From Takakia lepidozioides (taxonomy: Eukaryota > Plantae > Bryophyta), in assembly GCA_030704615.1 (NCBI GenBank), contig CM060731.1, positions 72,664,001-72,728,000 of the forward strand: a DNA stretch of 64,000 nucleotides, given 5' to 3'. Shown here piece by piece: positions 28,933 to 54,769 of the stretch. Each line of letters starts with the position of its first letter. Within the stretch, counting starts at the first letter, position 1. Below the pieces are notes generated by a model. The model was not told where the DNA came from and did not search any database. It was given only the letters and a program-made list of their open reading frames with translations. A program made the translations under genes and the position numbers.

Positions 28933-29542
28933 TGTCACGGACATAGCCCAGAGGAACTTACCAGGAGTAAATACCAGAAGTTACCAAGTTATCATGTATC
29001 GGAAGTTACCATGATTTACCATGATCTACCATGATTTACCATTACTTATCAAGTTATCGGGAGTTTACCAAATTACCAAGAGTAACTTAGGAAACTACTC
29101 AGGAAACTTCATTTGGAAGAAACTTTTCCATCAAGATACCTCCTTTGTTTAAGGAAGCTTCTCCATCAAGAAATCTTTGTTTAATCTTAGAAACTTCTCC
29201 AGCAAGAAACCTCCATAGGGGAAACTTCTTGGGGAAGCTTCTTAGTAGCCAGTATATATAGGAGGCGAGACTGGACACTCTTCAGTTTCGCCAACACAAG
29301 TTCAAGCTACTCTTGTTCCAAGTCCAGTACTCCAGTCCAGCTTCCAGTATCAATTCCAGTTTTCAGCATTCCAGTATCCGAGTTGAGTTCCAGTATTTGT
29401 ACTCTTGTCCATTGTTATAAAGATCATCTGGATTCATGTTCACCTACCATGCATTCGGCCATGCCGACCTTGACTTCTTGCCTAGTCTTGTACCTCTAGT
29501 CTGATCTCTTGTTTGTGTTCTGTCATGTTCTCGTCCTTGACA
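28933..29542 (+). repeat. 5' LTR of the chromovirus
   Basis: TGTCACGGAC...CCTTGACA; TATATATA box; direct repeat of 46226-46837. Confidence 0.95.
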
Positions 29543-29580
29543 GTTTGACGAGACTAAAGTTTGTTCTTTAGTTAGTTAAG

Positions 29581-32514
29581 ATGGAATGCACATTTGCGGA
29601 AATGGTCACCATATTGCAGAGTCTTCAACTCCAGATGCAAGATCTTCGTACATCTACCGCCCAATTGCAAGCTGATCAATCTCAAGATCTTGGCAACGTT
29701 CTCCACAATTTGTAACAACAAATTTCAGAATTAAAGGAGTCGAACAATGGATCTTCAACCATACGAGTCTCTACTGCAACAGCTCCTACTGTAAAGGTTC
29801 ATCTTCAACAGAGTATGAGAGAACCAAAGATCAGTATGCCCGAAAAATTTGATGGGACAAGATCAAGATTTCGCGGTTTTGTTCAACAAATACGACTGTT
29901 CCTACGACTACATCCGCAACGCTACCCCGATGAAGGTATTCAAATGGGGTCCGTGGGCACCATTTTATCAAGCATTGCCATATCTTGGTTTGTACCGCTG
30001 TTAGAACAAAATTCGCATTTACTATACAATTTTGAAGCATTCATGTCCGAGTTCACTGCAACATTTGGAGAAAATGATAGGGAGAGAGTTGCAGAGACAA
30101 AGATGCGAAATCTTCGACAAGGAGCATGTCCTACTTCCGTTTATGCTGCCGAATTTCGACAACTTGCATGCGACCTTGACTGGAATGAGAAGAGCCTCAT
30201 TAGTCAATTTCGATGTGGACTAAAGGAGGATGTAAAAGATTTGTTGCTGACAATGCCAAACGTAAGCACACTGAGCGAATTCATCACCCAAGTCATTGCA
30301 TGCGATAATCGTTTGTTCAAAAGACGTCAAGAGAAGCGATCTGGATGATCGACGATGCATCATGCCGCTGCTACTACTGCACCAAACACAATGATTCAGC
30401 AGACATCCAGTAGTGATCCTATGCAGATTGATGCTATCCCATTCAAGCCATTGACGCCACAAGAAAAACAAAGACGACGCTCGAATTGATTATGCTTCTA
30501 TTGCGGAGAAGGAGATCACATAACATTAAACTACCCCAACAAGAGAAGATTCAAAGCTCGGGGCGCAACTCAAGTGTTCGATACGAGGAGGTCGGAAAAC
30601 GAAGATGTCCAGTCACAGTAGGGACCATGCGGCTGGACACCACAAATTCCTCACAAAAAAAAGGTCTCTTTCTACCTCCAGACCCTGCACCTTGCTTCAA
30701 AGTTCCTGTAAAAATCAGAGTACAAAATCGAGATATCTCTGTAGAAGCACTTTTGGACTCAGGGGCTTCAGCATGTTTTATTGACAAAAACTTTGCAAAG
30801 CAACACAATTTAACGCTCGTAAAGAAGAAACTCTCGACCCCCGTTGAAGTCATCGATGGACGACCGTTAGCATCAGGAAATGTTGACCATGAAACTCGAC
30901 CACTTGAAGTGAAGCTTGAAGATCAAGCATCTCATATTGTTTTCAACATCATCCAGTTTCTAACGAATCATGTCATCCTTGGACTTCCCTGGTTCGTACT
31001 TCACAATCCTGACGCGAAAAAATTCTGCAAGACGAAAATGTAGAAATATCAAAGGTATTCAACCCTTGTTCCTTGGAGCTAGAGCTTTCATGAGAGCTAC
31101 CAAAAAGGATGTGACATTCGCACTTTATGCGACTCCGATCAAGACCACAACAGACAAAGGTACTTCGACATTACCCACTCAATATCAAGATTTCAAGGAT
31201 GTCTTCGAGAAGAAAAATGCAGACATATTGCTAGAACATCGACCTTATGACTGTACAATTGAGTTACAAGAAAGAGCCCAACCACCATTCGGCCCAATCT
31301 ATAACTTATCCCAGACGGAGTTGACTGCATTATGTGAGTACATTGATGAAAATTTGTCAAAGAACTTCATCCGACATTCAAAATCACCTGTGGGGGCGCA
31401 TATCTTATTTGTGAAAAAGAATGACGGATCATTACACATGTATCGCGGTTTCAACAAAGTCACAATTAAGAATCGTTATCCGTTGCCGCTGATTTCTGGG
31501 CTTCTCGACCAACTGGGACGAGCAAAGATTTTCACCAAAATTGACTTGAGAGGAGCTTATAACCTTGTACGGATAAAAGAAAGAGACGAATGGAAAACAA
31601 CTTTTCGAACAAGGTATGGACATTTTGAATACAGTGTTATGCCTTTCAGTCTTACAAATGCTTCAGCAATTTCCAACATATGATGAATGACATCTTTCGA
31701 GAATTTTTAGATGACTTTGTAGTCATCTATTTGACACGACATTTTGATATTTTCACAGAATGAAGAAGAACATGGCCGCCATGTACGCCTTGTCCTTGAT
31801 AAATTAAGAGAAATAGGACTATATGCCAAATTGGAAAAATGTATTTTCCATCAATCTGAGGTCGAATTTCTGGGCTACATTATTTCCGACAAAGACGTCT
31901 TTATGGATCAGAAGAAAATACAAACCGTCATCGAGTGGATTAAACCAACTTCGGTCTGAGATGTACAATATTTTCTGGGATTTGCAAATTTCTATAGAAT
32001 CTTCATCAAGGACTACTCCAAAATTGCTGCACCATTGACACGATTCACAGGGAAGGACAAATTTGTATGGGACGAGAAGGCTGACCAAGCATTTGAAAGG
32101 CTGAAGCAGACATTTACAACAGCTCTAATACTGGTGCATGCAGACCCATCTAAACCATTCTTTTTGGAAGCAGATGCATCAGACTTTGCACTTGGCGCGG
32201 TACTCTCTCAATACGGTACAGATGGCCGACTCCACCCTGTTGGTTTTCGTTCTCGCAAATTTTCCGCTGCAGAGATCAATTATGAAATCCATGATAAAGA
32301 ACTTCTAGCGATTATCGATGCTTTTGAGGAGTGGCGTCATCTATTGGAGGGAGCTAAACATCATGTCACTGTCTACACCGATCACAAAAACCTCGAGTAT
32401 TTTATGAGTGCTCGTGTTTTGAATCGACATCAAGCGAGATGGAGTATGTCACTAACAAGGTTTGATTTTATTATTACCTACCATCCCGGACATCTTCAAG
32501 AAAAATCAGATGCT
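29581..32514 (+). pseudogene. Chromovirus gag, protease, RT and RNase H (disrupted)
   Basis: PEKFDGTRSRFRGF; PMQID; ALLDSGASACFID; [13 protein letters not shown]; LEADASDFALGAVLSQ; NYEIHDKELLAI; VYTDHKNLEYF. Confidence 0.93.
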
Positions 32515-32843
32515 TGTCAAGTTATTTTACCACTAGTGTGAAGTTAGCTAGAAAATAGCAAGCTTTTATATATTGACATTTGGGATTGACCCAAGTGTCA
32601 ATCCAGGGGCCAATACATGTTTGGGCACCTAACGTTGTTATCTTCACGGCAGATCGTGGTGGGCTCATCTTTCTCAAGTTGAGCCTCACCGCGCCTAGCT
32701 ATGGCGCCGTAGTGTGGATTCCCCATGGCGTGGGGTGGACTTGGCTTGACTTGTATTTAGGTAATGAGTTTATATATGCATGAGTTTATGCTTCAGCTTT
32801 GTGAGCTCGCATGAGCTTGTGCTTGTATTCTTCTTCTTTATCA
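32515..32843 (+). repeat. Terminal repeat A1 (329 bp)
   Basis: TGTCAAG...TTTATCA; about 17 substitutions versus A2 (43905-44233) by manual comparison. Confidence 0.95.
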
Positions 32844-32858
32844 CTCGAGAAAGATGAG
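32844..32858 (+). promoter_or_regulatory. Putative self-priming primer-binding site
   Basis: CTCGAGAAAGATGAG is the exact reverse complement of 44054-44068 in A2 and has 1 mismatch to 32664-32678 in A1; it does not start with TGG as tRNA PBSs do. Confidence 0.7.
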
Positions 32859-34279
32859 ATCGTATCTGTGAGTGCCAGATACGAGTTAGTTGTAGCACTT
32901 GTGGTTTTTGCTTGAGAATAAGAGAAACCAAGTTGTTATGCAAGGAGCACCGTGGAGCTCTTGGTTGTTAGTAGCGGAGGCGATGTGGGTTACGAGGTGG
33001 TAGACCTTGGCATTCGATCTTCAGCTTCCGAGATGACAGCACCATGCTGCAGGTAATTCCAGAGCACCTTGATGGTTTCAGATTGTGTACATGCATGAGC
33101 AAGCACGATTGGGAAGAGGACCAGTCAAGAGCAGGTTATAGTGGCTTTGGTGGCAAAGCTGAGAACTGGACTTGGGAATGCGAGCTTTCATTGTGTGAAA
33201 GATTGCAAGACCAAACGAAAGGGCTGATTTGGCTTGGGGCAAATCAGTGCACTTTGTGGAATATGTTGAGAGTGGGTTTCAATCTCAAGCTTCAGCATTG
33301 AGATGGCTCTTGTCATGGCAAGAGCAGGGCTGGAACAGGAGCTAAGAGGTGCGGCAAGGCCATGGAATGTGCACCTAGGGTTTCAGAGCTTGGAAGAAAA
33401 GCTCTTGCACCACAAGAGGAGTGTCTTGTGGCTGGAAATGTAAGCCTTAAGGTTTCAGGAGCTTGGCAAAGGTTGTGGAGTGCTTAGTATTGTCTTAGAG
33501 AGCATCAATGAGCCAAGGAGCCAAGATAGGGGCTGATACCTCTTGTGTGAAGAGGTTGCATGTGTGGAGCATGTATTCAGCTCATTGAAGCTTCCATCTT
33601 CAAGCTTGGAGGGCAAGCAAGAAAGAGGGAAGGGGCTGGTTTCCATGTAGGGCATGTGTGGAGCATGCTTCCAGCCCGCTGAAATTTGTATTTTCAGGTT
33701 GGTGGGTGCAAGAAAGGAAGCAAAGGGGCTGATTCTCTTGTGGTGAGAGTGGGGCATGTGTGGAGCATGCCTTCAGTCCATTAGGCTTTTGTTTTTAAGC
33801 TTTAAAGAACTAGAAGAGAAGGTAAGGGGCTGATCTGCTCTTATGTGACAGTCCGACACTTGTAGAGCGTGTTCTTAGTTGGGGTTTCAACCTCAAGCCT
33901 AGATAGAGCATGGCTCTTGAAGTGGCAGATGTAGGGGGCTGGAATAGGCTCTAAAACAGATGCTATGGCCAAGGAAAACGCTTGAATGAGTGCTCACAAG
34001 GGCTAGAAACCAGCAAGGCTTGGTTGTTTGCCATTGAGTTTAGTGGCGTGTTTAGGGAGTCTAAGTGAGAAAGAAGGCTTGGTTTGTGGCAACCATCTTC
34101 CTTAGGCTTAAGGCTACTATTGGTGGTGTGTGGGAGCCGAAAAAGCAAGAATACCTTGCTGATTTCTTCACTGCCGCCATAGCTCAGTGCAAAGAAGCCT
34201 AGGGTCCAAGAGACACAAACCCTAGCTTGGCGTGGCTAAACCCCTTGGAGAAATGGCTAAACTGCCATGAGTGGCCATG

Positions 34280-34930
34280 GATGGGGCTGGCTGTGCCCTG
34301 TGGCTTGTGGGGCCGTGAGGGGCTATGACAGGCTATTCCATGTGGCCCGTGGGGCTGTGACGGGCTGTGCCATGTGGCCTATGGGGCTGTGACGAGCTGT
34401 AAGGGGCTGTGACAGGCTGTGCCCTGTGACCCCTGTGACCTGTGTAGGGCTGTGACAGGCTGTGAGGGGCTGCGCCTGTGGCCTATGGGGCTGTGACGGG
34501 CTGTGACAGGCTGTGGCCTTTGGGGCTGTGACCCCTCTTACCTGTGTAGGGCTGTGAGGGGCTCTGACAGGCTGTGGCCTTTGGGGCTGTGACCCTTGTG
34601 ACCTGTGTAGGGTTGTGACAGGCTGTGAGGGGCTGTGACAGGCTGTGGCCTGTGGCCTGTGGGGCTGTGACGGGCTGTGATAGGCTATGACAGGCTGTGG
34701 CCTTTGGGGCTGTGACCCCTCTGACCTGTGTAGGGCTGTGATGGGCTGTCACAGGCTGCGGCCTGTGGGGCTGTGACCCTGTGAACTGTGTAGGGCTGTG
34801 ACAGGCTGTGGCCTGTGTGGGGTTGTGACGGCTGTGACCAGTGAGCTGTGTGGGCTTGTGCTGGTCTGTGGTGGCCCGTGTTGACCTGTGGACGGCCTGT
34901 GCTGACTTGTGGAGGCACTGGTGGACTGCC
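34280..34930. repeat. GGCTGTGAC-type minisatellite in the element's 5' leader
   Basis: Dozens of ggctgtga(c) units arranged in higher-order blocks of about 50 bp. Confidence 0.92.
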
Positions 34931-35600
34931 TAAGGACTGGCATGTGGTCTTGAAGGCCGAATTTTAAAGCTCGTGGAGGGCGGTTTGAGGAGTATCTTCA
35001 TGATATTCCCATGGTCATGCAAGTGATGGAAGAGAGGAGAGGAAGAGTGTTGGGATGAGGGCATGCTAGGGTTAGGCATTGCTTTAGCTTCTTTTCTTCG
35101 TAGTTTCCACCCTCTCATTAGGCCAAGACCTTTCCGTAGGTGGAGGCAAGAGTCAGTCCGGGTTTGGGCTGGGGTGTCCTTGCAGGAGCAACACCGTGGA
35201 GTTGTTTTTGGTGTGGGGGAGTTGTCGTTCTGATTTCTTGTGTTTGGATCCCCTCCATACCTGCATGCTTGGCTATGCGCCATGCTAGTTTTGTGTGGGC
35301 GCTTGTTTTTATAGTTGATTGGTCCAGATTTGATCACCGGCCAGTCCTAGAGCATGCTGTCGATGGTGAGGCTGGGGTGATGACCAGCCAGACCATCATT
35401 GTTTCTCCTGTGGTGAGGTTGGAGGTGATGACCAGCCAACCATAGGAGTGCTTGCGGTGGATGCAGGTACAAGTGTAGGCTATGTTAGGAACATAGTATT
35501 CCAAACCATAAGCCGCAGCAGGTTCTCTACCCGGTTACTTTGTGGAGAGGGATTAGGGACATGTTCATGACCGGTTGAATGACAGTTTGTCAACACGGAG

Positions 35601-38285
35601 GTGCCACAAGTTGTTGGGGATAGTGCCGGTTTGAGCACTAGCGATACTAGTGGGTACACGAGACGAGGTGTGCGATTTAGGCCACCTTCACCTCCTGTGT
35701 CTTCTACGGAAGGTTCTGATTCGGATTGTGAATCAGGAGGACTCGTACCGGCGGTGCAAGTGGTTTCCTTGCCATTGTTGTGGGACACAATGGAGGAGAT
35801 GTATGGAGCTACCAAGGGGCTACAAAGGTACTCTGGGGCGGTGGGCACCATCGAGTTGGATGATTTTATCCAAGAGTTTGATAGTTGGTGTGATTTGCAG
35901 CAAATGCGCAATCCACAACTATTTACGCCTTTCATGGCATAGAAGGGGCTATTTCAGTACCTTGAGGGGCCGCCTATGGATGATTACCATGAGTTCAGGC
36001 GGGGGCATGAGGTTGAGATCAAGGAGTAGAGGATGTACTGGTCACCCGACTATGTCTCCATCACTAGGGGCACTAGAGCCACGAGGGCAGTGGCTACACC
36101 TGCCGCTGCACCGGCAGCTTCAGCAAGCAACAGTGGGACTAGTGGGACTGGTGGTACAGTAGCTACAATGTCCACCCAAGCCACTACCGCACCAGCACTA
36201 GTACCCGTGCCTGCCTTCAACCCTATTGTGGAGTTCTTCGAAGAGTTGAGAGGGAACTACCAAAGGGTGATGATAGAGAAGTTGCGAAGCTTGCAAGAGT
36301 TCCAACGGAAGCCAACCGAGAGCTTGAGGAAGGCTTTCACTCGCATGAGGCGCTTGATAAATGTAACCCAAGGGGTTACGGAAGCTTAGGTAGTCCAATT
36401 CTGGTATGGGATATTGGACAAGGAGCTGAGGAGAAGGGTGCGGGATGCAACTCTCCTACAAGCGGCCCAACCCACCTTAGCAAATATGTTTTTGCTGGCA
36501 GAGCGGATAGAGCTCAACATGGTGGAGGAACGAGTGGTCATGGTGGGATTTACTAAGGAGACACCACGGGGTAGTGGTGCTCCTAGCCAACCACTACCTC
36601 AATGTGCTCAAGGCAACAAGGGGGCTCAGGTGAAGCTCAGGGAAGGGCAGAGAGGACCTCAGATGCAGGGGTCTCTCCCTTCATTTGCAGGTCAACAACA
36701 GGGGGATGTGGTGTGCTGGACATGTGGAGGACCCCATGTCAAGAAGGATTGCCCAGAGAGAGGCAAAGGGCCGGCACATGCACAGCCTGCACAGTTGCAG
36801 TGTGGGCATTGTGGCAAGCACGGGCATGGAGAGGCCCAGTGTTATGGTTTGCATCCTGACTTGCGTCCAGGCCAGTTCCAAAGGAACAATGGTGGCCGGA
36901 GGCAAGGTGGAGTAGCCCAGAGAGGACGAGGTGGCCAGGCACGAGGTGCAGGCCAAGGGCAAGCTCAACATGGCCAAGGTCGCTGAGGTCAGGGTGTTGA
37001 CCAAGGCATGGCCAACCGGCTTCAGCAGCTAGAGCAGAGGCTCGCTGCCATGGCTACAGCTCAGGTGGTACCGGCTCCAAGGCCGGATGGTCCACCTCCT
37101 GCTCCTAAGGGAGGAGATATGGGAGGCATGGGATTCAAGTGTGGAGCAGCACTACCACTAGTGCAGGTGGAGTCTGCTGCAGCCGTGACTCGAGGAGCAG
37201 CACGAGTTCTTGAGCCACAAGGTGCAGAGGTGGAGTCGTGGGGAGGCAAGCCGTTACTATGCCATTGGGGAGAGCTACACGGGTAGCACCACTACCTAGT
37301 GTTGCCAAGGCTTTGGCAGCTAGTGTGCTGCTAGGAGCGGCCACATCTATGTGTCAGGCTCCATTGTTCTCGGCTACCATGATTGCGACGCCGGGGGTAA
37401 GACCAGCTGAGGTGTTCAGGCTGGCAGCTACACTCTGTGAGAGTGGGGAGGTTACTTCATCTTCTGCGGAGATAGTGGGAGGTGTAGGGCCAGAGGGATC
37501 CTCGGATTTGAGGGTCAAGACTGCCACGGCGGCGCCATGGCAAGCTGCAGCTGCGGTTGATGGAGCTGCCAGCTAGGCCAGCCATTGAGCGCGCCATGGT
37601 GACACCTGGAGTTGTCATGTTAGACAACCAAGATGGCATTTTCTGTTTAAGTGGACCGGTAGGCAAGAGGTACCGGCCACTGCGAGTCTCGTTGGACTCA
37701 GGAGCTCAGCCATTGATGCTGGGCAGAGCTACTATTGCAGGCTTGGGCCTCACGGAGGCGGATATGGAGCCTTATCATTTCCAGATACAGACGTCTCTGG
37801 GAGGATCGGAGCAGGCTCGGGGCATGACACGGCGTGAGTTGGCTATCAGACTATGGCCGGATTACCCTACAGATGGCTCAGTGATGCGAGCCAAGGCCAT
37901 TGTGATAGACGCGGTCTCGTACGATGTCCTGGTTGGTGGGGCAATGTTGTACCCCATGGGCTTCACCCTGGATTTTTGGGAGGAGTCAGCTTCTTATAGG
38001 CCTGGATGGCTGTTAGGGGAGGGCCAAAGTATGCAGCTCCCTGTGACGTTTATAGGAGGAGTTGCGGTTGCCCAGCGGGGCAAGATGCCGACACTAGTAG
38101 CATTCACAGCTGCAGTGACTTGGCCTAGAGAGTTGCTTGAGGGAAACGCTCATTCAGAGGATGACATACCTCCGGGAGAACAGGATGACATGTATGATAT
38201 AGCGGAGTTGCCTGCCATGGTTGCTCTGACTCCATTGTGGGGCACGAGCAAGGTTTTGCAGCAGGTTGTTGATCGACGGGTGTAA
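35601..38285 (+). pseudogene. Gag (two CCHC knuckles) and aspartic protease of the DNMT-Gypsy
   Basis: LDDFIQEFDSWC; CWTCGGPHVKKDC; CGHCGKHGHGEAQC; protease SLDSGAQ...YDVLVG; in-frame stops and one frameshifted stretch. Confidence 0.85.
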
Positions 38286-38417
38286 CAAGCCTGGGTGGAG
38301 GCTTTTGTACCATCAGGAGAGGAGGAGACTGCGGGGATTGCACCAAGACCACCTCAGTTGTCTCCATTGGACACCACACCTATTGTGTGGCAGTATCCGG
38401 ATGAAGGCATTTGTTTT

Positions 38418-39350
38418 CTGGACTTGTTTGGCGGGATCAGCACCAGATTGGCTGCTGTATTACAGGCAGATGTACGAGTTCGGCGTTACCTGTATGTGGA
38501 GAGGGATGAGACTGCACGACGCGTTTCACTTCGCCATATTACTCAGTTGGTGCAGCGGTATCCTGAGTTGTTGCCGGTGGCTGTAGTTCGTGGATATTAG
38601 CAGGCCTTGCCAGCAGACATTTTGATGATGGGGGCGCAGGATTTGGAGCGGGTTGGGTCCATTGATCTGGTAGTGGCAGGTTGGCCTTGCCAAGGGCATT
38701 CATCAGCCGGGCATAGCAATGGATTGCGAGACTCGACGTTGGGTCTGCTTTGGAAGATGGTGCGGGTTTTGCGCCACTTGCAGGTTTATCAAGCTGTATC
38801 TCCAGCATACATCTTGGAGAATGTGCCACTGATGGGCGATTCTCGGGCCAGGGTGATGGCCAGTGTGCATCAAGTCTGGTCGTGGCTTGGGTCAGCAGTG
38901 TTGCTAGATGCAGCTACAGTGGGGTCACGGGCTCATCGTCCACGGCTATGGTGGACTAACTTGATGCCACCCGCACTGCTCAAGCGTGCATTTGATGGGG
39001 TGCAGCGGCCAGCACATCTCACAGTGGATAGCATTCTGGACACAGGGAGGAAGTCTCAGCGTGTGAGACACGATGACCGTTCGCCTTTGGCAGTCGTCAA
39101 CAAGGTGGGTCAACCACGAGCAGCATTACCTACACTGCTCAGCTTCCCAGGATCGCATGCTTTCCGGGATAGTGGACCTGGCCTCCTGTGGGATGCTCAG
39201 TTGCAGCAGTTAGTGGAGTCTAATGCTGACGAAAGTGAGCGGGCAATGGGTTTTACCACTGGTACCACGGCGGTGTCGTCTCTTTCTGAGGCATCACGTC
39301 GTCAAGTGTTGGGGCAAGCAATGGATCTCAATTGCTTGACCTGGATTATC
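38418..39350 (+). CDS. C5-cytosine DNA methyltransferase domain (DNMT3-like) within pol; one premature stop at 38598-38600
   Basis: Motif I LDLFGGIS, II YVERD, IV GWPCQGHS (PCQ at 38685-38693), VI YILENV, VIII AHRPRLWWTN, IX ERAMGF, X RRQVLGQAMD; same reading frame as the protease. Confidence 0.92.
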
Positions 39351-39749
39351 AGCTTGGCTATGGCTGAGCAATGCAGAGTGCGGAGTACACTTCCCTCGAT
39401 GGTCTCTTTGCCTACCGAGATGGTACAGGCAGTGAGTGGGGGCAAGCATGTGAGGACCACGGGGTGCAGGCATCCATGGCACACGTGGGAGGTGCTCGAG
39501 GTTCAGAGGGAGTTGGCAGCCAAGGTGGCGGTGATGGATAATTTTTCTCGGGTGGAGGAAGTCCTTGAGGATGAGATGATGGGGCAGGATGAGGCCTTGT
39601 CACTGACTGAGCAGGTAGGGAGTACTGCTCAAGAGGTTGCAACATAGCAACCACTGGATGCGTCCTCTACCTCTAAGCCCACTGGACTTAAGGTTGCAGT
39701 TACGGAGGACAATTGGGAGCCTGACATTGGACCCATTGTCACCGGAGAA

Positions 39750-42700
39750 GAGAGACGACGTATACGGCGGTTCCTGAGGGCTTACAAGAATTGCTTTGCC
39801 TTCAGTTTGAAGGACTTGGGAGCACTGAAGGGTCAAGAGATCCGTATTGAGTTGGCCACTGACACTCCAATCTTTCGGAGACCCTATAGATACAGTGACA
39901 TGGAGAGGTCTTTGATTCAGATGAGGACTCAAGATCTCTGGGAGGCAGGTTGGGTGGAGCTCTCTGGTGGAGCTCTCTGGTGTAGAGTATGCTTCAGCCA
40001 TAGTGATGTCAGCCAAGAAGGATGTCTATGGCAATTGGACGGAGTGTCGCGCACCTCACTTCGGTAAGCTCCCCCCCCTCAAGTCATAGTTACTCGCTTG
40101 ATGCGCGCGCCTAACTCCCAACCTGGCTGCCGGGCCAACTTGGAGCTTCGGCTGCTCACCGGGACATAACGGTCCCCCCTTAATCTCCCAAAGAATCCTC
40201 CAACGATTTAAAACCAGCGGAATTCCCTTTGGTAGTTGGCAGTCCGGAACAGCTCCCCACTCTTTGGTCGCTTTCCGGCTCGCTCGCTTACTCACTAGCT
40301 TTTGGTCACCAACGGGCTTGCACCGTTCTCGGGGTTACTACTCCCTATATATACTTCTGTAGCTGTCCGCGGGGGTTTCACAAACAACCATGCCATTTTA
40401 TGGCGAACCACCACGAACACCCTCGACTCCCGGTGATGAGTCGCGGTGAGTCTTGGCCCACTCACCAGGGCCCCTATGGACCGTGATGAGTCCCAAGACT
40501 CCCCACGACTCCCACCACGAGGTCTCCGCCCCAGGGTGAGTCCTATGCCACCCCCACTAAGTCCCGCTAAGCTACCACCACCCCTTGTGGAGCCACCCCC
40601 ACCGCAACCCGGTGTGCGGGGCTCCACCTAGTGAGCGCCTCCGCCTCATTGAGTGCTTTGGGCACTCAAGGGTGCTTCAGCCCCCCATACTTATCGCTGC
40701 CACTGCCCCCACCACAGGGGCAGCCCCTCTTGTGTCCCGACCCCCTGCCCTCAAGGCAAAGGGCCGCGACACGGAGAGACGTATGTGCAGTGATTACTGG
40801 CCTGTAAATCGTCAGACCAAGTCCGATAAGTATGCCATGCCAACACCAGAGGAGATCTTTGATGCCATCGGGCATGCTAAGGTCTTTAGCACTTTGGATT
40901 TACAATCCGGATATCACCAATTGCCAATCAAGGAGGCGGACAAGCAGAAGACGACATTCTGGGGGATCAATGAGCACGGCAAGGATTGCCTATATCAGTG
41001 GCGGTTCTTACCATTTAGGCTTAAGAATGCTCCTGCAGAGTTTCAGAGAGTCATGGATAGGATTCTAGCAGGGGTGGACTTTGCTCGGTGCTACATAGAT
41101 GACATCATCATCTTTAGTGTTACGGTGGAGGAGCATGAGAGACACCTTCAGGTGGTATTGGAGCGCTTGAGAGCACACGGATTGAAGTTGCATCCGGGGA
41201 AGTGCAAGTTTTTCCACAACCAGATTGAGTATCTAGGTCACATGATATATCTTGGAGGACTGGGGGTACAGCAAACTAAGGTAGAGGCCATTGCACAAAT
41301 TCCACGCCCCACGGATGTGAGCCGAGTTTGAGCTTTCATGGGGTTGGCAAACTATTATAGACGGTTTGTCAAGGGATTTAGTGCCATTGCAAAGGCTCTA
41401 ACCAAGCTGACCAAGGTGGACCAGGAGTGGCAGTGGGAAGATGAGCAGGAACGAGCTTTTCAAGAGCTCAAGGCAAGGTTGACCTCGGCGCCTATCCTAA
41501 GACGACCTATCAGGGGGCGTCCCTTTCAGCTGCATACGGATTGGAGCATGTTGGGGCTTGGAGCGGTGCTCACACAGGTGGATGATGAGGGAAGAGAGTT
41601 CGTAGTGGCTCATATTAGCCGCTTGAACAACGCTGCAGAGGCTAAGTACAGCTCATATGAGGGAGAGTGCTTAGCTGCAGTGTGGGTTGTGACACACTTC
41701 AGGTGCTATCTATACGGCAATCTTTTCACCTTTGTCACGGATCACCAGCCACTCAAGTGGTTGATGGAGTCAGACAAGCTTACGGGGAAGCTTGCACGGT
41801 GGGCACTCATACTCCAGGAGTATGACTTTCAGGTTGTGCATCGACCGGGTTTGGTCAATCGGGATACGGATGGATTGAGTCGCAATCCATGCACGAGCCA
41901 GCAGGATGACACTGGAGCTCGGTGGCATGGTGAGACGGACGAGGAGATGGTGTCGGGATGGCACGCATCTGCATTTTTGTGTATCTTGGCATCGGGAGGT
42001 CAGGTTAGACCTACAATAGGGATGACTGTAGACGGAGTGTCTGAGGACCCTGAGGCTAGTGATGAGCCAGGTGGTGCCAGAGATATACATGAGGATTCGG
42101 CTGTGTTGGACTACCTCCGCACGGGAGACACGGCAGCCACTACGGCTGCCAGGGAGAGGGATCGGATCTTGCAACGAGCCAAGAGATTCAAGTGGGAGGG
42201 GATACACCTACTTCGAGTGTGGGAGGATGGTCGGGTGAGGATTGTGCCTCACCCCACACAGCGTGCACGGTTAGTGCGGCATGCCCATGAGGAGTTGGGG
42301 CATTTTGGAGTGCGACGCACTCACAGTTTACTGCAGGGGCAGTATTGGTGGCGTGGTATGCATACAAAGGTGCAACAGTTCGTGGCTAGGTGCATGGTGT
42401 GTGACAGGGTGCGTGCTTCATTCAACGCCCAACAGTTGCATCTTTTACCAATCATGGGATTGGGCTACATGTGGAGTCTTGACTTCGCAGGACCGTTGCC
42501 ACTGACTATGCGCCACCACAGATATGTGTTGGTAATGGTGGAGCACTTCTCCAAGTGGATTGAGTTGGTTCCATTGCCTGACAAAGCTAGTGAGGGGGCT
42601 GCGTATGCATTCTTGGATCGTGTGCTTAGCCGATTTGGTGCTCCAGCTGAGGTACTCACGGACCAAGGAGAGAGTTCTTGGGGAGTTTCAGGCTTTGTGT

Positions 42701-43519
42701 GATAAAGCCTTGATAGACCACCGTACCACTTCTCGGGATCATCCTGAGGCCGATGGCTTGGCAGGGAGAGTGGTGTAGACGGTGAAGAGGGGTTTGCGCA
42801 AGTATGGCTTGCAAAAATGACACCTAGGAGATTGGGATCTTCAAGTACCTTGGCTAGCCATGGACTACAGGTTTATCAAGCAAGCATCACTTGCCTTCTT
42901 CTCACCATATTTCCTTCTCTTTGGCCGAGAGCCAGATTTGCCTGCGTCTATTCGCAGGGAGACTGCAGTAATCCTCAACCTTGATGATCCGGATGTGTGG
43001 ACATAAGCATGTGCCCAGCGGGCAGAGTTGTTCAAGAGAGTCATGCCTGTGGCTTTTGAGAATCTTGCTATTGCCCAACACCGAGACACATTGAGGTATG
43101 CCACTATACGTGGAGGGGGATATCGGCCAGGTGTTCGGCGTTTCCACCGTGGGGACTATGTGTATCTGCAGCAGACAGCGCCTACGACCTTGGATATCAC
43201 ATCAGGACGTGTGATTCTAAGGGTCAGAGAGGTGTTTCCTTCAGGAGTGTTGATTCTGGAGGGTCGAGATGGCATGGTATGAAAAGACCATGTGCGTAAT
43301 TGTGCGCCATGTCACCTTCCACATGTGGATGGGAGGATAGATCCCAACCTTGCAGTGGTACCTACAGGATTGCGTTGCATGCTATGTGGGCATGCTCGTG
43401 GTGCCGCCACTATGCTGGTGTGTGATCGATGCTCAAGAGGTTGGCACATGGGATACTTGACACCACCTCTTGAGAGGGTTCCTGATGGAGATTGGTTATG
43501 TCCACACTGCTTGGGATAG
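39750..43519 (+). pseudogene. RT, RNase H, DDE integrase and C-terminal PHD finger of the DNMT-Gypsy
   Basis: STLDLQSGYHQ; CYIDDIIIFS; LHTDWS; EGECLAAVW; VTDHQPL; HEELGHFG..CMVC; WSLDFAGP; VLTDQG; CMLC..CDRC..WHMGY..WLCPHC. Confidence 0.92.
40045..40771. mobile_element. Solo LTR (727 bp) inserted in the RT of the DNMT-Gypsy
   Basis: TGTCGCG...CGCGACA termini; 5-bp TSD CGGAG (40040-40044, 40772-40776); removal restores WTERRMCSDY. Confidence 0.92.
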
Positions 43520-43778
43520 TGACAGTGGATATGACTAGTGGCAGCTCACAAGACATGGGAGGCCAAGCTCATATGAGTCAATACCCGAGATCTCAGGCTC
43601 AAGTTCACAGGTTGCAAGACGACGACTAACGATGGGGCAACTCTTGTACCCGGCCTCTTGATCTATTGAGTTTGAGTGTAGTAGGGACAGTGATGGAGGA
43701 CTTAGTGAGGCTATGGCCACTATCACATCTTGTGGCTACCTGGACTTAGAGGGACCTAAGCGCCAGCTAGGGGGACGA

Positions 43779-43902
43779 TTGTGAGTGGACTAGTGGCAGC
43801 CTAGTGGTGGACTAATGGCTGCACTAGTGGTGACTAGTGTGCACATATGTTGTGTGGTTTGGACAACGATGTAGTTGTGTAGCGATATGTATGCGTACGA
43901 CA
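43779..43902 (+). repeat. Terminal repeat B1, preceded by a polypurine tract
   Basis: Purine-rich AGGGGGACGA (43769-43778), then TTGTGAG...ACGACA; shares both ends with B2. Confidence 0.9.
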
Positions 43903-43904
43903 GT

Positions 43905-44233
43905 TGTCAAGTTATTTTACCACTAGTGTGAAGTTAGCTAGGAAATAGCTAGCTTTTATATATTGACATTTGGGATTGATCCAAGTGTCAATCCAGGGAC
44001 CAATACATGTTTGGGCACCTGACGTTGTTATCTTCACGGCAGATCGCGGTGGGCTCATCTTTCTCGAGTTGAGCTTCACCGCGCCTAGCTATGGTGCCGT
44101 AGTGTGGATTCCCCATGGCGTGGGCTGCACTTGGCTTGACTTGTATTTGAGTGATGAATTTATATATACATGAGTTTATGCTTCAACTTTGTGAGCTCGC
44201 ATGAGCTTGTGCTTGTATTCTTCTTCTTTATCA
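43905..44233 (+). repeat. Terminal repeat A2
   Basis: Direct repeat of 32515-32843, separated from B1 by GT. Confidence 0.95.
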
Positions 44234-44486
44234 TTGTGAGTGGACTAGTGGCTGCACTAGTGGTGACTAGTGGCAGCCTAGTGGTTGGACTAGTGGCTGC
44301 ACTAGTGGTGGCTAATGACAGCCTAATGTTGGACTAGTGGCTGCACTAGTGGTGACTAGTGGTTGTCCAGTGGCAGCCTAGTGGTGCACTAGTGGTGTAC
44401 TAATGATAGACTAGTGTTTGGTGTGCACATATGTTGTGTGGTTTGGACAGCGATGTAGTTGTGTAGCGATATGTATGCGCACGACA
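44234..44486 (+). repeat. Terminal repeat B2 (more ACTAGT units than B1)
   Basis: TTGTGAGTGGACTAGTGG...GCGATATGTATGCGCACGACA, followed by the TSD. Confidence 0.9.
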
Positions 44487-46068
44487 TGCTCTTTCTCGAC
44501 GATCGTATCTTGCGCCAAAAGAAGGGGATGCAGCTTTTGACCAACAAAAATCTATCATCTTGAAACCAACAAATTTTCAATTGAATATGCTATCCATGTC
44601 CACCTATGAGGATGCAGAGATCATAAAGGAGATTCATGAAGCACTGAAGAGCGACCAATTTGCTACGACATTACAAAGTCAACTAAATCGACCTCGAAAT
44701 AACCCACATGTTACAAATGACTTCAAATTCAAAGATGACTTACTTTATTTCAAGGGACTTCTCTATGTACCTTCAGGACCTACACGACTGCGAATTCTTC
44801 AAACATGTCATGATCTTCTTGCTGTAGGACATTTCGGCTTCAACAAAACAATAGAATTGATATACATAGACTATTGATGGCCGCAGATGTGGAAACTCGT
44901 GAAAGACTTTATAAAATCTTGCGACACGTGTGCTAGAGCGAAGGGACCACAACATCGACCTTACAGCCTTCTTCAACCATTACCCATTCCCAATGGTCCA
45001 TGGTCATCCGTGTCTATGGACTTTATTACGGACCTTCCAATTTCCAAGACCACCGACTCAATCCTTTTTATTGTGGATCGTTTTACGAAGATGACACATT
45101 TCATTCCATGTAACAAGACGGTTACGGGCGAGGAAACTGCAAGACTCTTCCTCAATAATATCTACCGCATTCATGGACTCCCGAATGACATCGTATCTGA
45201 TCGAGGACCACAGTTCATATCAAATTTCTGGAGGAGATTATTTCACATATTGGATACTAAGATCAACTCTCTACAGCTAATCATCCACAGACTGATGGTC
45301 AAACCGAACGTGTAAACCAGATTTTGGAGCAGTATTTTCGCTGTACGATAAATTATCACCAAGAAATTTGAATGGACCTTTTGTCATTGGCTGAGTTTGC
45401 CTACAACAACACTATACATTCTTCGACCAAGCAAACTCCATTTTCTCCAATTATGGTCATCATCCTCGAGCAAACATTTTCCACATGAAGACTGTTGGAA
45501 GCCCTGCTGCAGAAAACCTTATTACTCATCTTGCTACGATTCACAAGGAGCTTACATTCCACCTCGCAGAAGCTCAAAAACAATACAAGCATATGAAGAT
45601 CAACATCGCCAACTCCAACCCCAGTTCAAGGTCGGAGATCGTGTGTGGCTTCTTCGACGGGACATACAAATCTCACGACCATCAAGGAAGTTGGATTATC
45701 AACGCCTGGGACCATTCAAAATTATTCGACAAATAAATGCGGTCAGTTTTCGGCTTGAACTCCCACAAAGTATGCGCATCCATCCAGTCTTTCATGTTTT
45801 ATTATTGGAGTTGTATCATCCATCGAATATTCCAGTGAGAGTTTCCGTACCACCTCCACCAATCGAAGTCAATCAGGAAATCGAGTATGAAGTCGACGAA
45901 GTCCTAGACTCTCGCATCAAGTATAAACGTTTTGAGTATTTCGTACATTGGAAAAGCTACGATATCAGCGAACGAACGTAGGAACCTTCATCCAACCTTG
46001 CCAATGCATCTAACAAAGTCCAAGAGTTTCATCAACGATATCCAGCTAAGCCCCGAGCTCCACGTTAA
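44487..46068 (+). pseudogene. Chromovirus integrase and chromodomain (disrupted)
   Basis: CHD..VGHFG; CDTCAR; WSSVSMDFITDLP; IVSDRGPQF; GPF motif (LGPFKII..IHPVFHV); EYEVDEVLDSR..EYFVHWKSY. Confidence 0.93.
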
Positions 46069-46225
46069 TAAGATATCACAACGATGATGTCAGCCAAATT
46101 AGCTTCAAGGTGAAGACTCCACATTCAGTGTATCTTATATACATTAAGGAGAGAGGTTCTCCAACTCTAAGCAAGTCCAAGATCTTACCGCTCCTCGAGG
46201 AATTCGGCGCTAGAGGAGGGGGTGA

Positions 46226-46837
46226 TGTCACGGACATAGTCCAGAGGAACTTACCAGGAGTAAATACCAGAAGTTACCAAGTTACCATGTTACCGAAAGT
46301 TATCATGACTTACCGTGATTTATCATGATTTACCATTACTTACCAAGTTACCGAGAGTTTACCAAATTACCAATAGTAACTTGGGAAACTACTCAGGAAA
46401 CTTCCTTTGGAGGAAACTTTTCCATCAAGATACCTCATTTGCTTAAGGAAGCTTCTCCATCAAGAATCATTTGTTTAATCTTAGAAACTTCTCCAGTAAG
46501 AAACCTCCGTAGGGGAAACTTCTTGGGGAAGCTTCTTAGTAGCCAGTATATATAGGAGACGAGACTGGACACTCTTCAGTCTCGCCAACACAAGTTCAAG
46601 CTACTCTTGTTCCAAGTCCAGTACTCCAGTCCAGCTCCCAGTATCCAGTCCAGTTTCCAGCATTCCAGTATCCGAGTTGAGTTCCAGTATTTTGTACTCT
46701 TGTCCATTGTTATAAAGATCATCTTGATTCATGTTCACCTACCATGCATTCGGCCATGCCGACCTTGACTTCTTGTCTAGTCTTGTATCTCTAGTCTGAT
46801 CTCTTGTTTGTGTTCTGTCATGTTCTCGTCCTTGACA
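46226..46837 (+). repeat. 3' LTR of the chromovirus
   Basis: TGTCACGGAC...CCTTGACA followed by TSD CCTAC. Confidence 0.95.
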
Positions 46838-48966: not shown

Positions 48967-50711
<1,745 letters not shown>

Positions 50712-51959
50712 CTTCAACCCTGCAAGCACCCAACCGGAGAAGGAAGGAAATGAAACGAGACGAGAGCACGAGCGAAGAATCACGCCCAGTAGGAAGTTTT
50801 CCAACCACTTTATCTAGGGCCTAACCCTAATCTGGAAGCATTCATCAGTAGGTGGGTTTCCTGGGTGCTTCTGACACCAATCATTCCCGTTAGGTTCCTT
50901 TCGCTCTCGAGTTTGTGACAGGCTATCGAGGCCAAGAAGAATCTGAATTTCGGACTGAACAGGCAAGCTCTTTGCCTTCCTATGATAGCAATGTCAAACT
51001 GTTGTAGCAATTAGTTCTAATCTGAAATGTCAGAGGTTGTCATTGAACTGATTCTGATGCTTACCACTCAGGGAACTCTTTCCAATTTATCCCCTTGGAT
51101 TGAGGTATCTGGAATGTTGAAAACTGTTTTGTCCTTTGGGACCTTTCTACCAAGTCACCCTGGTCAGGGGTGATATACATATTTCTGGTAGCTCCTGTAT
51201 TTTGCCTCCTTGGGATGCACTTTCTGAGTGTTAAATCCACGACTCTTTGTTTCACAAGCAGGCACAGGTGATGTAGCATCTGGGCCAAGACAGAGGTCAG
51301 CTGTTGTCTCTCCTTCAGTCCTGGAAAAGGGCTGTCAGGCTGTCTATTGCTACTTTGATCTGTTGTCTGCCTCCCTCATTTCTCTGAGCTTCATGAGAAT
51401 TTAGACGCCTGCTTTTGGTTGGTTCTTTCTCTCTGTCTGTGGTGCTGAGAGGGCATTTTCTCATGGTTGCAACGAGCCATTTTGTCAATAACACCGATTA
51501 GAAATCAAGATTACTTTATATTAACGTTCTTACAGTGTCGAAGTTCTTGTATCAAGCAAGCTGATTGATGATGCCTTACAGTTGAATCCAAATCTTTGCT
51601 GTGTTGCCATGTTAGTTGGAGAGCAGCTCTAAACTAGTGTTTAAGGGATGTCTTTACATCTCAGAGTAAGTCGCTCATGTTAGTCAAAATTTGTCTTTGT
51701 GGTGTCAATATCCAAACCCAGTTAAATGCAGAAAAGCCTTTCATCTGCCAAACAGCCTGTCTGCTGGTGAATGGTGGCACTTGGTACTTGGTCATAGAGG
51801 ATACTCCAAAGATGCCAATTCCAGCTCTTATTCAAGTTGAAATACAAATGTGGGTGCCTCACCTCTAAGCTGTAGGGGCGGCTTCCAAATTCCTCTGGCC
51901 AGGAGAAGCCTCAAGCTGTGACTCGGCATGGATGACACTGGCATTGCTTGATGGCAAAA

Positions 51960-52417: not shown

Positions 52418-54769
52418 TCAGTCACTCTGGAGAATACTTCCTGCTGCCCGTTCTGCTACTGCAACATCGCCATGAATTTGGCAGGCACTAAGCAAGGCCT
52501 TCCATATGCATGTATCAGCCATGATTTGCATTCTGTTGATAAGGCTCTCTGCTTCATCTAATCGCCCTGCACGACCAAGAAGGTCCACCATACAGCCAAA
52601 ATGCTCCACCGTAGGTATGAGGTTATGATCTCGACTCATGGAATTGAAGTAGTGATGGCCTTCATCCGCGAGGCCGACATGGCTGCATGCAGAGAGAAGA
52701 GACATAAAAGTGACACTGTTCGGCTTCAAACCTTCCTTGTGCATTTGTTCAAAGAGTTGCAGGGCTTCCCTACCAAACCCATGCTGAGCATATCCTGTGA
52801 TCATGGCATTCCATGAGATCACATCTTTTTGAGCCATACTGTCAAACACTCGACGTGCATCATTCATGCTTCCACACTTGGTGTACATGTCAACAAGTGA
52901 AGTCTCCAGGATGATATCAAGCACACTACTATTTTTGCTAATGTCAGCATGGACCTTCTTGCCCTTTTCCAGGGCTCCTAAACAGGCACATACATTAAGA
53001 ACACAAATGAATGTGACACTGTTAGGGGTCACCCCTTCTTGTTGCATTTGCTCATACATCTCGAAAACCTCCCTACCGAACCCATGCTGAGCATATCCTG
53101 TTATCATGGCAGTCCATGAGATCACATCTCGCTGAGCCATAGTATCAAACACTTGATGTGCATCCTTCATGCTCCCACATTTGGCATACATGCTGACAAG
53201 GGCAGTTTCCAAAGTAATATGTGATGTAATTCCAACATTTCTGATGTGAGTATGGACCTCTTTGCCCTTTTCCAGGGCTCCGAAGGTTCCACATGTATTG
53301 AGAATGCAAATAAATGTCACTCTGTTAGGCACCACCTCCTCCTGTTGCATCTGCTCATAAATCTCAAAAGCCTCCTTACCACACCCATGCTGATTATATC
53401 CGGTAATCATGCTATTCCATGAAACCACATCTCGTTCTGCCATTCTATCGAACATTTGACGTGCTTCCACTATGCTCCCGCATTTCGCATACATGTCTAT
53501 AAGGGCATTCTCCAAATTTATGTGTGATACAATTTCAGCTTTCATTATCTTAACATGGACCTCTCTGCCCTTTTCCACGGCTCCTAAGCTCGCACAGGCT
53601 CTGAGAATGCATATGAAGGTGACACTATTAGGGGGCACCCTGTCCTGTTGCATCTGCTCATACATCTCGATAGCCTCCTTACCAGACCCACGCTGAATAT
53701 ATCCTCCAATCATGGCATTCCATGAAACCACATCTCTTGTAGTCATATTATCGAACACTTTAAGTGCATCCTCTATGCTCCCACATTTGGCATACATGTC
53801 GACCAGTGTATTCTCTAAATTAATGTATGATACAATTCCAGCTTTGATAATTTCAACATGGAACTCTTTGCCCTTCTCCAAGGCTCGTAGTCTGGCACAA
53901 GCCTTGAGCATGCAAATGAAAGTGACAGGGTCAGGTGTCACCCCTTCCTGTCGCATTTGTTCAAAGATTTTGAATACTTCCCCACACCCATGTTCAACAT
54001 ATCCGGCGATCATGGCGTTCCATGAGACTACATTGCGCTTAGTCATTTTGTCAAACACTTGACACGCATCCTTTATGCTCCCACATTTGGCATACATGTC
54101 AACAAGGGTAGTCTCCATATATATATCTAATACAATTCCACTCTTGATAATGTCACGATGGACCCGCTTACCTTTGTCAAGGGCTCCTAGGCTGGCACAG
54201 GCATTGAGAATGCAAATGAATATGATCTTGACTGGCTTTGACCCCTCCCATTGCATTTGCTCATAGATTGTGAAAGCCTGTTGAGCATGCCCATGCTTTG
54301 CATATCCTGCCACCAGTGCTGCCCATGTAAATGTATCTCGTTCAGGCATTCTGTCAAACACTTTTCTTGCATCCACCATGCTCCCACACTTTCCATACAT
54401 GTTGATGATGCTGTTCACTAGAAAAATATTTGGCCTGAATCCACTTCGAATAATGTGGGCATGCACCTGCTGTCCCTGTCCCAGAGCTTTCGTTCTGATG
54501 CAGGCCTGCAAAAGATCAATATAAGTTTTGCAGTCGGCCTGAATGCCTGGTTGGTTCAATATCTGCAATGCGTCTTTCAAGCGTCCCTCCTTACATAGTG
54601 TCCTCACATTGCGACTGTCAGAGGAGTTTTTCTTGACTGCCTCTCTCAGCCCACTTTCACAAGCATTGGTGACGGTGAAGGTGCTACCTTTGCCAGAAGC
54701 CTGATAAGTCAAAATAAATTGTGCTGGATGCAACCCTGTCATCTTCCATGTCTCAGAGCTCGTAGTCAT
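52418..54769 (-). CDS. PLS-class PPR protein (783 aa), stops after E1
   Basis: Open PLS array; WKALLSACQIHGDV; close paralogue of 2991-5141 and 56857-59082. Confidence 0.92.
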   Translation of the reverse strand: MTTSSETWKMTGLHPAQFILTYQASGKGSTFTVTNACESGLREAVKKNSSDSRNVRTLCKEGRLKDALQILNQPGIQADCKTYIDLLQACIRTKALGQGQQVHAHIIRSGFRPNIFLVNSIINMYGKCGSMVDARKVFDRMPERDTFTWAALVAGYAKHGHAQQAFTIYEQMQWEGSKPVKIIFICILNACASLGALDKGKRVHRDIIKSGIVLDIYMETTLVDMYAKCGSIKDACQVFDKMTKRNVVSWNAMIAGYVEHGCGEVFKIFEQMRQEGVTPDPVTFICMLKACARLRALEKGKEFHVEIIKAGIVSYINLENTLVDMYAKCGSIEDALKVFDNMTTRDVVSWNAMIGGYIQRGSGKEAIEMYEQMQQDRVPPNSVTFICILRACASLGAVEKGREVHVKIMKAEIVSHINLENALIDMYAKCGSIVEARQMFDRMAERDVVSWNSMITGYNQHGCGKEAFEIYEQMQQEEVVPNRVTFICILNTCGTFGALEKGKEVHTHIRNVGITSHITLETALVSMYAKCGSMKDAHQVFDTMAQRDVISWTAMITGYAQHGFGREVFEMYEQMQQEGVTPNSVTFICVLNVCACLGALEKGKKVHADISKNSSVLDIILETSLVDMYTKCGSMNDARRVFDSMAQKDVISWNAMITGYAQHGFGREALQLFEQMHKEGLKPNSVTFMSLLSACSHVGLADEGHHYFNSMSRDHNLIPTVEHFGCMVDLLGRAGRLDEAESLINRMQIMADTCIWKALLSACQIHGDVAVAERAAGSILQSD

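Follow-up and report, generated by a model that had tools for sequence, protein, structure and literature searches.

A nested Gypsy element with a cytosine methyltransferase

The window analysed here is a stretch of 64,000 nucleotides from the moss Takakia lepidozioides (GenBank assembly GCA_030704615.1, contig CM060731.1, positions 72,664,001 to 72,728,000 of the forward strand), and within it lies a decayed Ty3/Gypsy retrotransposon of about 12 kb whose coding region includes a C5 cytosine DNA methyltransferase (DNMT). The element extends from 32515 to 44486 (positions are those of the window), begins with TGTC and ends with GACA, and has TGCT on both sides as a 4-bp target duplication; reading the duplication as 5 bp (ATGCT) is contradicted by other copies, which end at the CA. 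An earlier reading of the sequence alone (the sequence-only reading) had drawn the element too narrowly, at 35601..43519, and missed both a PHD finger and the split terminal repeats. Comparison of the window with itself gives the layout A-coding-B-A-B, in which a 329-bp repeat A starts at 32515 and again at 43905, and a repeat B at 43780 and again at 44235. An empty-site joint skipping 11,976 bases was found in contigs of three of four public runs, and 40 and 29 contigs, in two runs from one sample, leave the window exactly at 44486 into unrelated flanks. The insertion interrupts the frame for pol in an older Gypsy element with ordinary 610-bp long terminal repeats (LTRs), 94.6% alike, and a 5-bp duplication; a diverged further copy of that LTR lies at 18927-19301 on the other strand.

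The window copy is dead: it has stops and frameshifts, and a solo LTR from another family interrupts its reverse transcriptase (RT). The sequence-only reading had put the breaks within and beside the DNMT domain down to single-base nonsense changes, which does not hold for every one of them. The domain has one internal stop; the TAG at 39645-47 turned out to be a conserved feature of the family, and the frameshifts and the 727-bp solo LTR had gone unseen. A joint skipping 732 bases, and thus without the solo LTR, occurs in all four public runs compared. The solo LTR belongs to a high-copy family whose minus strand carries a primer site of tRNA type, as seen from loose ends in other contigs. 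Between A1 and A2 there are 17 differences in 329 bp (Kimura two-parameter distance 0.054), and the window DNMT departs from the family at near-invariant columns.

The gene order is Gag, zinc knuckles, protease and DNMT, then a conserved stop, then RT, RNase H, integrase and PHD finger (Table 1). When 37512-40067 is read with X at the stops, the protease, all DNMT motifs and the start of RT follow each other in one frame. The PHD finger is present in nearly all relatives, and only 2-4 further residues follow it in the protein of the window element and of its closest relatives. No chromodomain was matched by Pfam in the element, which therefore lacks the C-terminal chromodomain that marks a chromovirus.

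Table 1. Features of the methyltransferase element and of the elements nested with it, in window positions.
Feature	Position	Strand	Basis or remark
Host element: older ordinary chromodomain Gypsy	28933..46837	+	LTRs 28933-29542 and 46226-46837, duplication CCTAC
Left target-site duplication TGCT	32511..32514		Flank comparison; empty-site joint
Repeat A1, 329 bp, TG...CA	32515..32843	+	Holds predicted transcript start and self-primer near 32664-32678
Predicted self-priming primer-binding site	32844..32858	+	Complementary to 15 nt inside repeat A
Tandem-repeat array in 5' untranslated region	34277..34871	+	Self-comparison
Gag, two zinc knuckles, broken by stops	35790..36872	+	Up to 63% identity to Marchantia Gag-protease-DNMT gene models
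Aspartic protease (LDSGA)	37602..38021	+	Weak Pfam match, E 0.067; frameshifts upstream of protease
DNMT3-type C5 cytosine methyltransferase domain	38382..39392	+	Catalytic Cys, Glu, Arg-x-Arg kept; one internal stop
Conserved in-frame TAG, then CAA CCA; likely programmed readthrough signal	39645..39653	+	CAR-YYA consensus (PMC2194720)
Reverse transcriptase (YIDD), split by solo LTR	39717..41250	+	PF00078, E 3e-30
Solo LTR of another family inside RT	40045..40771	-	727 bp; 5-bp duplication CGGAG; private to window copy
RNase H	41332..41880	+	PF17917, E 2e-33
Integrase (HHCC and core), with frameshift and stops	42064..43279	+	PF17921, PF00665
PHD finger at integrase C-terminus	43376..43510	+	PF00628, E 3e-9; aligned with 8 relatives
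Polypurine tract directly before B1	43769..43778	+	Sequence at ends
Repeat B1, TG...GACA	43780..43902	+	Shorter than B2: fewer tandem units
B/A junction GACA-NN-TGTC	43899..43908		Predicted integrase site
Repeat A2	43905..44233	+	Self-comparison
A2/B2 joint, one base in window	44234..44234		Predicted scar of cDNA end-joining; variable in relatives
Repeat B2, right end of element (...GACA)	44235..44486	+	Contigs with unrelated flanks break here
Right target-site duplication TGCT	44487..44490		Flank comparison

Identity of the methyltransferase domain

The motifs of an unpermuted C5 methyltransferase had been read between protease and RT in the protease frame, and all of them were found there on the plus strand. 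After the protease SLDSGAQ (Asp 37695-97) come LDLFGG at 38418-35, GWPCQ (Cys 38688-90), ENV at 38817-25, AHRPRLWWTN at about 38931-60, ERAMGF at about 39237-54 and RRQVLGQA at about 39297-320. The match of the domain to Pfam PF00145 (E 1e-10) reaches 41-42 bits, where 22 is the cut-off. The resemblance to DNMT3-type enzymes, also noted earlier, was borne out by every comparison with solved structures. A single-sequence search places DNMT3A at the top, followed by DNMT3B and 3C, with DRM and HhaI far behind; a profile of 41 DNMT sequences matches DNMT3A at 6e-28, DRM-type enzymes at 1e-16 to 5e-13 and HhaI at 3e-9. An AlphaFold2 model of the domain (mean predicted local distance difference score, pLDDT, 93; predicted template-modelling score, pTM, 0.92) retrieved by Foldseek DNMT3A/B/C structures in 35 of the 35 rows listed (best E 3.9e-19, DNMT3A best in fold). 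In sequence and modelled fold the domain is thus closest to DNMT3, ahead of DRM, DNMT2 and bacterial enzymes, and its catalytic Cys and Glu are invariant in 41 diverse DNMT sequences.

Distribution, selection and co-descent of the family

With the DNMT as query, 49 proteins of similar length came up, and these include 18 gene models from Marchantia (with redundancy between assemblies), two from Calypogeia and two from Sphagnum, at 47-71% identity to the query for these three genera; a further 24 longer relatives include proteins of Klebsormidium, Scenedesmus, Monoraphidium and Cymbomonas; Closterium is also among the organisms with relatives of the element. A profile of protease plus DNMT gave 532 representatives at E 1e-30 or better. 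Judged by such matches, this is a multicopy Gypsy family spread across chlorophytes, streptophyte algae, liverworts and mosses, and the named proteins nearest to the window element come from bryophytes. No named match to vascular plants appeared in the protein searches, where only a minority of matches are named, so that this is not evidence of absence; in viral contigs only distant methyltransferases were met (best E 1e-12). The sequence-only reading had pointed to the retrotransposon-borne DNMTs of Klebsormidium (de Mendoza et al. 2018, PMC5890265; here and below, published work is represented by the accessible parts of the cited texts), and the link to that paper, and to its KnitGypsy-Dnmt3 elements, proved correct.

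The DNMT occupies one of two places in these proteins: among 364 proteins it stands after the protease or before RT in 58, and between RNase H and integrase in 137. The named members of the first type are streptophytes and those of the second are chlorophytes, and a single strong branch of the DNMT tree separates the two types. In a quick, unrooted DNMT tree the window element and Klebsormidium fall among 26 rows with the DNMT before RT, on a branch with a Shimodaira-Hasegawa-like approximate likelihood-ratio (SH-aLRT) support of 99; in the RT tree the Klebsormidium rows are set apart with weak support. The DNMT and RT-RNase H trees of 41 elements, compared after two long-branch rows had been dropped, agree with a Mantel rho of 0.50, reached in 0 of 999 permutations, and the RT tree recovers 15 of the 17 strong splits of the DNMT tree, with one strong conflict. 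Of 88 chlorophyte-type proteins, 24 were used in the trees, 23 of them in the 41-element comparison. In a quick RT tree, two DNMT-less elements meant as outgroups came out within the family on long branches, and the outgroup did not form one side of a branch, so that no root or order of events is claimed; one of the two, L064, has ordinary LTRs. In the DNMT tree the Sphagnum-type copies join those of Marchantia and leave Calypogeia outside, a departure from the host tree that would reflect either old paralogous lineages or horizontal transfer. In a Coleochaete scutata transcript (P0220), an RT-RNase H-integrase-PHD frame is 68% identical to the window element over RNase H-integrase. Two green-algal-type DNMT retrotransposons, L161 and L162, lie on contigs within two bacterial genome bins, most likely through binning contamination; L162 has one frame of 3265 codons and an extra frame of 713 codons before the polypurine tract.

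Three stop-free copies gave ratios of nonsynonymous to synonymous substitution (dN/dS) of 0.11-0.14 for the DNMT, and 0.044 for RT-RNase H in the longest pair. Among decayed copies the DNMT values were 0.37-0.53, similar to those of their RT-RNase H; deep pairs were saturated. These ratios show purifying selection on the DNMT across the family, at the level of the sequences compared. Could the domain still be a host DNMT3 fragment captured once by a single element, or nested there by chance? The decay of the window copy and its place among nested elements are what such an event would leave. In metagenomes, though, 80 loci kept from 162 matches have a common gene order as far as each contig reaches, with the DNMT in the same position as in many gene models, and the contigs of other copies cover the DNMT as they cover its neighbours. 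The domain has neither introns nor a duplication of its own, and with purifying selection and congruent trees added, a one-off capture is refuted for practical purposes. The sequence-only reading had regarded the domain as an integral one and had named in advance what would have spoken otherwise, namely want of a profile match, absence from other copies, and introns or a private duplication; on each of these points the opposite was found.

A conserved stop between methyltransferase and reverse transcriptase

Nearly all close relatives have the TAG that separates the DNMT from RT at an equivalent position, which is where the gene models of Marchantia and Calypogeia end. The stop being conserved, the DNMT ends the Gag-protease frame in this clade, and the earlier picture of a DNMT inside one open pol frame has to be given up. 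More distant members, Klebsormidium included, have DNMT and RT in one predicted frame. The CAR-YYA sequence is the readthrough signal of tobacco mosaic virus (PMC2194720); the context of the window TAG agrees with this consensus, and there is no ATG close behind it. In 60 sequences, the first stop upstream of RT is followed by CARYY in 49 and by the strict CARYYA in 6, counts that are not independent, one moss subfamily dominating them; the six strict cases come from four separate lineages plus one copy. It is likely that Gag-protease-DNMT would be the main product, and RT-RNase H-integrase-PHD would be made by leaky readthrough, which would place the DNMT at Gag-like levels. Against this stands the largest (moss) subfamily, in which the stop is followed by CAA CCC ATG, without the strict consensus and with an ATG two codons on, so that this subfamily might instead re-initiate behind the stop.

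The split terminal repeats

Directly after A1 lies a stretch that could serve as a self-priming primer-binding site, matching A2 over 15 nt and A1 over 12 nt (0 of 200 shuffles in each case) and pairing with A in the RNA fold with a z of -5.9. The complementarity extends over 15-16 nt in three copies (the window element, L079 and L068), over 9-11 nt in a further six and over no more than 8 nt in five decayed ones. The moss subfamily, with a different sequence, is self-complementary too, some 20-25 bases downstream of a TATA-like motif. Since no TGG follows A1, a tRNA primer was ruled out.

At the other end, the B/A junction of other host copies reads GACA-GC-TGTC, a perfect 10-bp palindrome. 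The palindrome follows the polypurine tract by 104-236 bases in the window, L004, L050, L054, L058, L079, the second-family L046 and the chlorophyte-type L162. The exact GACA-GC-TGTC occurs after the tract in L004, L058, L079, L162 and L161, and with one or two changes in L050, L054 and L046; the L161 contig ends within the palindrome. Bryophyte and chlorophyte types therefore have the palindrome in common, although the repeats of L162 and L161 are otherwise unrelated. L046 (14607-17213) represents a second, more distant PHD-bearing family, with an RNase H 52% identical, a tract-B-palindrome-A-B end and its upstream part missing.

Unlike the palindrome, the A2/B2 joint varies: it is T in the window, AT in L079, about 20 bases ending in the tail of the polypurine tract in L050, and nine bases of the primer-binding site plus filler in L061/L062. 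The A-B-A-B arrangement with 4-bp duplications was found in L079 and L050, and ten loci with both ends have exact 4-bp duplications in seven cases, one mismatch in two and no duplication in one.

A proposed replication cycle

How might an element with such ends be copied and inserted? B and A together behave as one ordinary LTR, since the polypurine tract precedes B1 and the 15 self-complementary bases follow A1, and the integrated A-coding-B-A-B is simply [BA]-coding-[BA] permuted at the B/A junction. Very probably the RNA would start inside A and prime itself as in Tf1-type elements, and reverse transcription would then yield a linear [BA]-coding-[BA] whose true LTR is B+A. With rather less assurance, we suppose that the ends of this linear complementary DNA (cDNA) are joined, creating the variable A/B joint, and that integrase makes a staggered cut in the palindrome that would give normal CA-3' ends, the site in the left LTR leading to A-coding-B-A-B. 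A variable joint with remnants of primer-binding site and tract is what joined linear cDNA ends would leave. Of the forms seen, A-coding-B-A-B would also be the only one able to replicate again, because it retains both copies of A; for the A-coding-B copies, possible origins are circles with one LTR, linear DNA cut twice, recombination between B repeats, and collapse in assembly. On the whole we find it fairly probable that the window holds a dead copy of a family of the KnitGypsy-Dnmt3 kind that integrates from end-joined circular cDNA, opened by integrase at an LTR-internal palindrome, with a DNMT that likely marks the new DNA.

Several observations weigh against passage through a circle. 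A circle with two equal sites should also give the mirror form A-B-A-coding-B, yet this was found at none of 20 distinct left ends, whereas 4 of 17 right ends continue into B-A (Fisher p 0.036; 0.017 with L061 counted), so that the circle would require an unexplained bias towards the left site. Of the moss-type right ends, 13 of 17 are plain A-coding-B. B1 and B2 differ within a copy at 7 and 10 of 112 positions and between copies at 7-10 of 112, and copying of B2 from B1 thus has no support from their divergence.

The prevalence of plain A-coding-B and the missing mirror form would fit a route with no circle, in which integrase cuts the linear cDNA at its two internal B/A palindromes and so makes A-coding-B directly, while A-coding-B-A-B arises from end-to-end dimers or from PAT/Ngaro-type template switches on RNA containing B2; the repeat layout, too, matches that of DIRS-group elements. 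We nevertheless hold this route to be unlikely. The joints of L061 and L050, with their remnants of primer-binding site or tract, point to a DNA joint that is remade in each cycle rather than inherited through RNA, and A-coding-B, with its single A, could presumably not complete strand transfer and may equally stem from the recombination or collapse already mentioned. An extension of the preferred circle pathway, which we offer as speculation of low probability, is that a clade as old as the green plants integrates in this way, its DDE integrase acting as a site-specific nuclease on the LTR palindrome and its DNMT methylating the second site so that only the left one opens and the integrated copy remains intact, as in a restriction-modification pair. 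The B/A junction does hold a conserved CG as well as CHG sites, and such a pairing, if real, would explain both the missing mirror form and the recurrence of methyltransferases in split-repeat elements.

Possible roles of the methyltransferase and the PHD finger

What might a retrotransposon gain from a DNMT? PHD fingers are known as readers of histone H3, and the one in this element seems reasonably likely to read histone H3 in choosing insertion sites. For the DNMT, the invariant catalytic residues and purifying selection argue for an active enzyme, and its position on the Gag frame suggests packaging in quantity, with methylation of cDNA as the simplest use. We give about even odds to a DNMT that is packaged and, before integration, methylates the cDNA or circle at cytosines, probably those in CG. 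The sequence-only reading had supposed that the element's protease would release the enzyme, which would be packaged and could methylate nascent cDNA or the integration site. Methylation of cDNA was also proposed for DIRS elements by de Mendoza et al. 2018 (PMC5890265).

Some evidence runs counter to such a role. The Klebsormidium DNMT domain gave no methylation in yeast, a result its authors call inconclusive (PMC5890265). CG depletion is equal in the element (0.51) and the window (0.47), so that it cannot be taken to indicate self-methylation. Among relatives found by RNase H-integrase, 57 of 104 have no DNMT in the same protein; most of these begin immediately upstream of RT, so that a DNMT cannot be scored in them, although several long proteins (e.g. 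P0257) do seem to be without it, and the DNMT may therefore be dispensable. The inactivity in yeast would fit an alternative in which the DNMT acted after integration or without catalysis, methylating or binding the insertion site at chromatin together with the PHD-bearing integrase, or binding RNA in the particle. The near-universal PHD finger fits this alternative, as does the position of the DNMT directly before integrase in chlorophyte-type elements. In the clade of the window element, however, the DNMT sits on the Gag-protease frame, far from integrase, and the invariance of Cys and Glu in 41 diverse sequences argues for catalysis; we regard the alternative as rather improbable beside methylation before integration.

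Other features of the window

Four long intronless frames of PLS-class pentatricopeptide repeat proteins lie in the 64 kb, at 2796-5141 (+), 24140-26368 (+), 52418-54787 (-) and 56797-59082 (+), one with a complete DYW domain; such PLS-DYW genes mark the host as a land plant and suggest heavy organellar RNA editing in it. Exon-like stretches or fragments were seen at 49188-50813 (-), 22218-23781 (-), 10866-11579 (-), 19199-20536 (-) and 13748-14885 (+). They include serine carboxypeptidase (PF00450) and Copia fragments, along with what we take to be a gene resembling proteasome subunit RPN11 and a CACTA-like transposase fragment.

Comparison with known systems

The closest known system is KnitGypsy-Dnmt3 of Klebsormidium nitens (de Mendoza et al. 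2018, PMC5890265), which like the window element belongs to Gypsy and carries a DNMT3-type domain that is unpermuted, free of introns and under purifying selection, with DIRS-like A-coding-B-A-B repeats around Gypsy domains. The Klebsormidium protein KFL_009030040 has the same order of protease, DNMT, RT, RNase H and integrase, with a DNMT 42% identical to that of the window, and the 0.11-0.14 of the stop-free copies lies below the Ka/Ks of 0.2 that bounds selection for KnitGypsy-Dnmt3. The two differ in that the window element resides in a land plant and that its DNMT is cut off from RT by a stop, while the gene model from Klebsormidium runs on without a break; a single open DNMT-RT frame is the only defining feature of KnitGypsy-Dnmt3 that the window element lacks, and a continuous protein is predicted for it solely by readthrough. 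De Mendoza et al. 2018 left the function of retrotransposon DNMTs open and presented the Gypsy case as an acquisition of the Klebsormidium lineage; the accessible text of PMC5890265 has no occurrence of 'PHD', 'Marchantia' or 'chlorophyte' and mentions neither a self-priming site nor a palindromic junction. Later papers of the group cite the Gypsy-DNMT3 family for streptophytes only (PMC12344493; bioRxiv 10.64898/2026.05.21.726589, as far as accessible). A literature search, with figures, theses, Repbase and subscription papers outside its scope, found no report of the family in land plants or chlorophytes or of the end mechanism, and the available text of PMC12344493, PMC11982613, PMC9477723, bioRxiv 2021.11.30.470311 and 2021.02.12.428880 describes no such family or mechanism.

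Other systems resemble the element in part. SymbioDIRS-Dnmt3 and other DIRS/PAT-type elements also combine A-coding-B-A-B repeats with a methyltransferase in pol, and two SymbioDIRS enzymes methylate CG de novo in yeast (PMC5890265). These elements use a tyrosine recombinase, in contrast to the DDE-type (rve) integrase and 4-bp duplications of the window element, which is therefore not a DIRS/PAT member. A precedent for cutting at a palindrome comes from prototype foamy virus, whose integrase reportedly cleaves an LTR-LTR junction that is palindromic and has CA and TG two bases apart, so that both processed ends arise in a single step (Delelis et al. 2005, PMC1180852). In that virus, whose provirus has ordinary LTRs, the cleaved sequence lies where the two ends meet; in the window element the predicted site is internal to the LTR and is retained after integration. 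As predicted for the window element, the primer-binding site in Tf1/Sushi and the plant Tcn1 is complementary to the element's own LTR rather than to a tRNA; those elements, however, are chromoviruses, and their LTRs are ordinary (Neumann et al. 2019, PMC6317226). That survey, which required LTR pairs with flanking duplications, reported NCGN 4-base target duplications for the moss Phygy lineage, and the split-repeat layout would likely fail its filter. EpiLTRs (bioRxiv 10.64898/2026.05.21.726589) are LTR elements that also unite a C5 DNMT with a chromatin reader; they differ in having a DNMT4-related enzyme, DAM and a chromodomain, and the preprint, whose accessible text mentions neither land plants nor Marchantia, sets them apart from 'streptophytes (Gypsy-DNMT3)'. 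Gypsy-7a_cRei of Chlamydomonas (PMC9940879) has a PHD finger in its polyprotein, as here, and no DNMT is listed for it in the part of that text available.

What is new relative to KnitGypsy-Dnmt3 is the wider host range, the conserved stop in a CAR-YY context and the split-end anatomy with a testable replication model. This anatomy offers a concrete model for an element with a DDE integrase and DIRS-like ends, one that departs from integration via linear DNA ends. LTR finders that need a duplication next to both LTRs would likely miss the layout, and such elements may be under-counted. In Marchantia polymorpha the gene models of the family carry no label beyond that of hypothetical proteins, and its presence there makes the question of what retrotransposons do with a DNMT testable in a genetically tractable plant.

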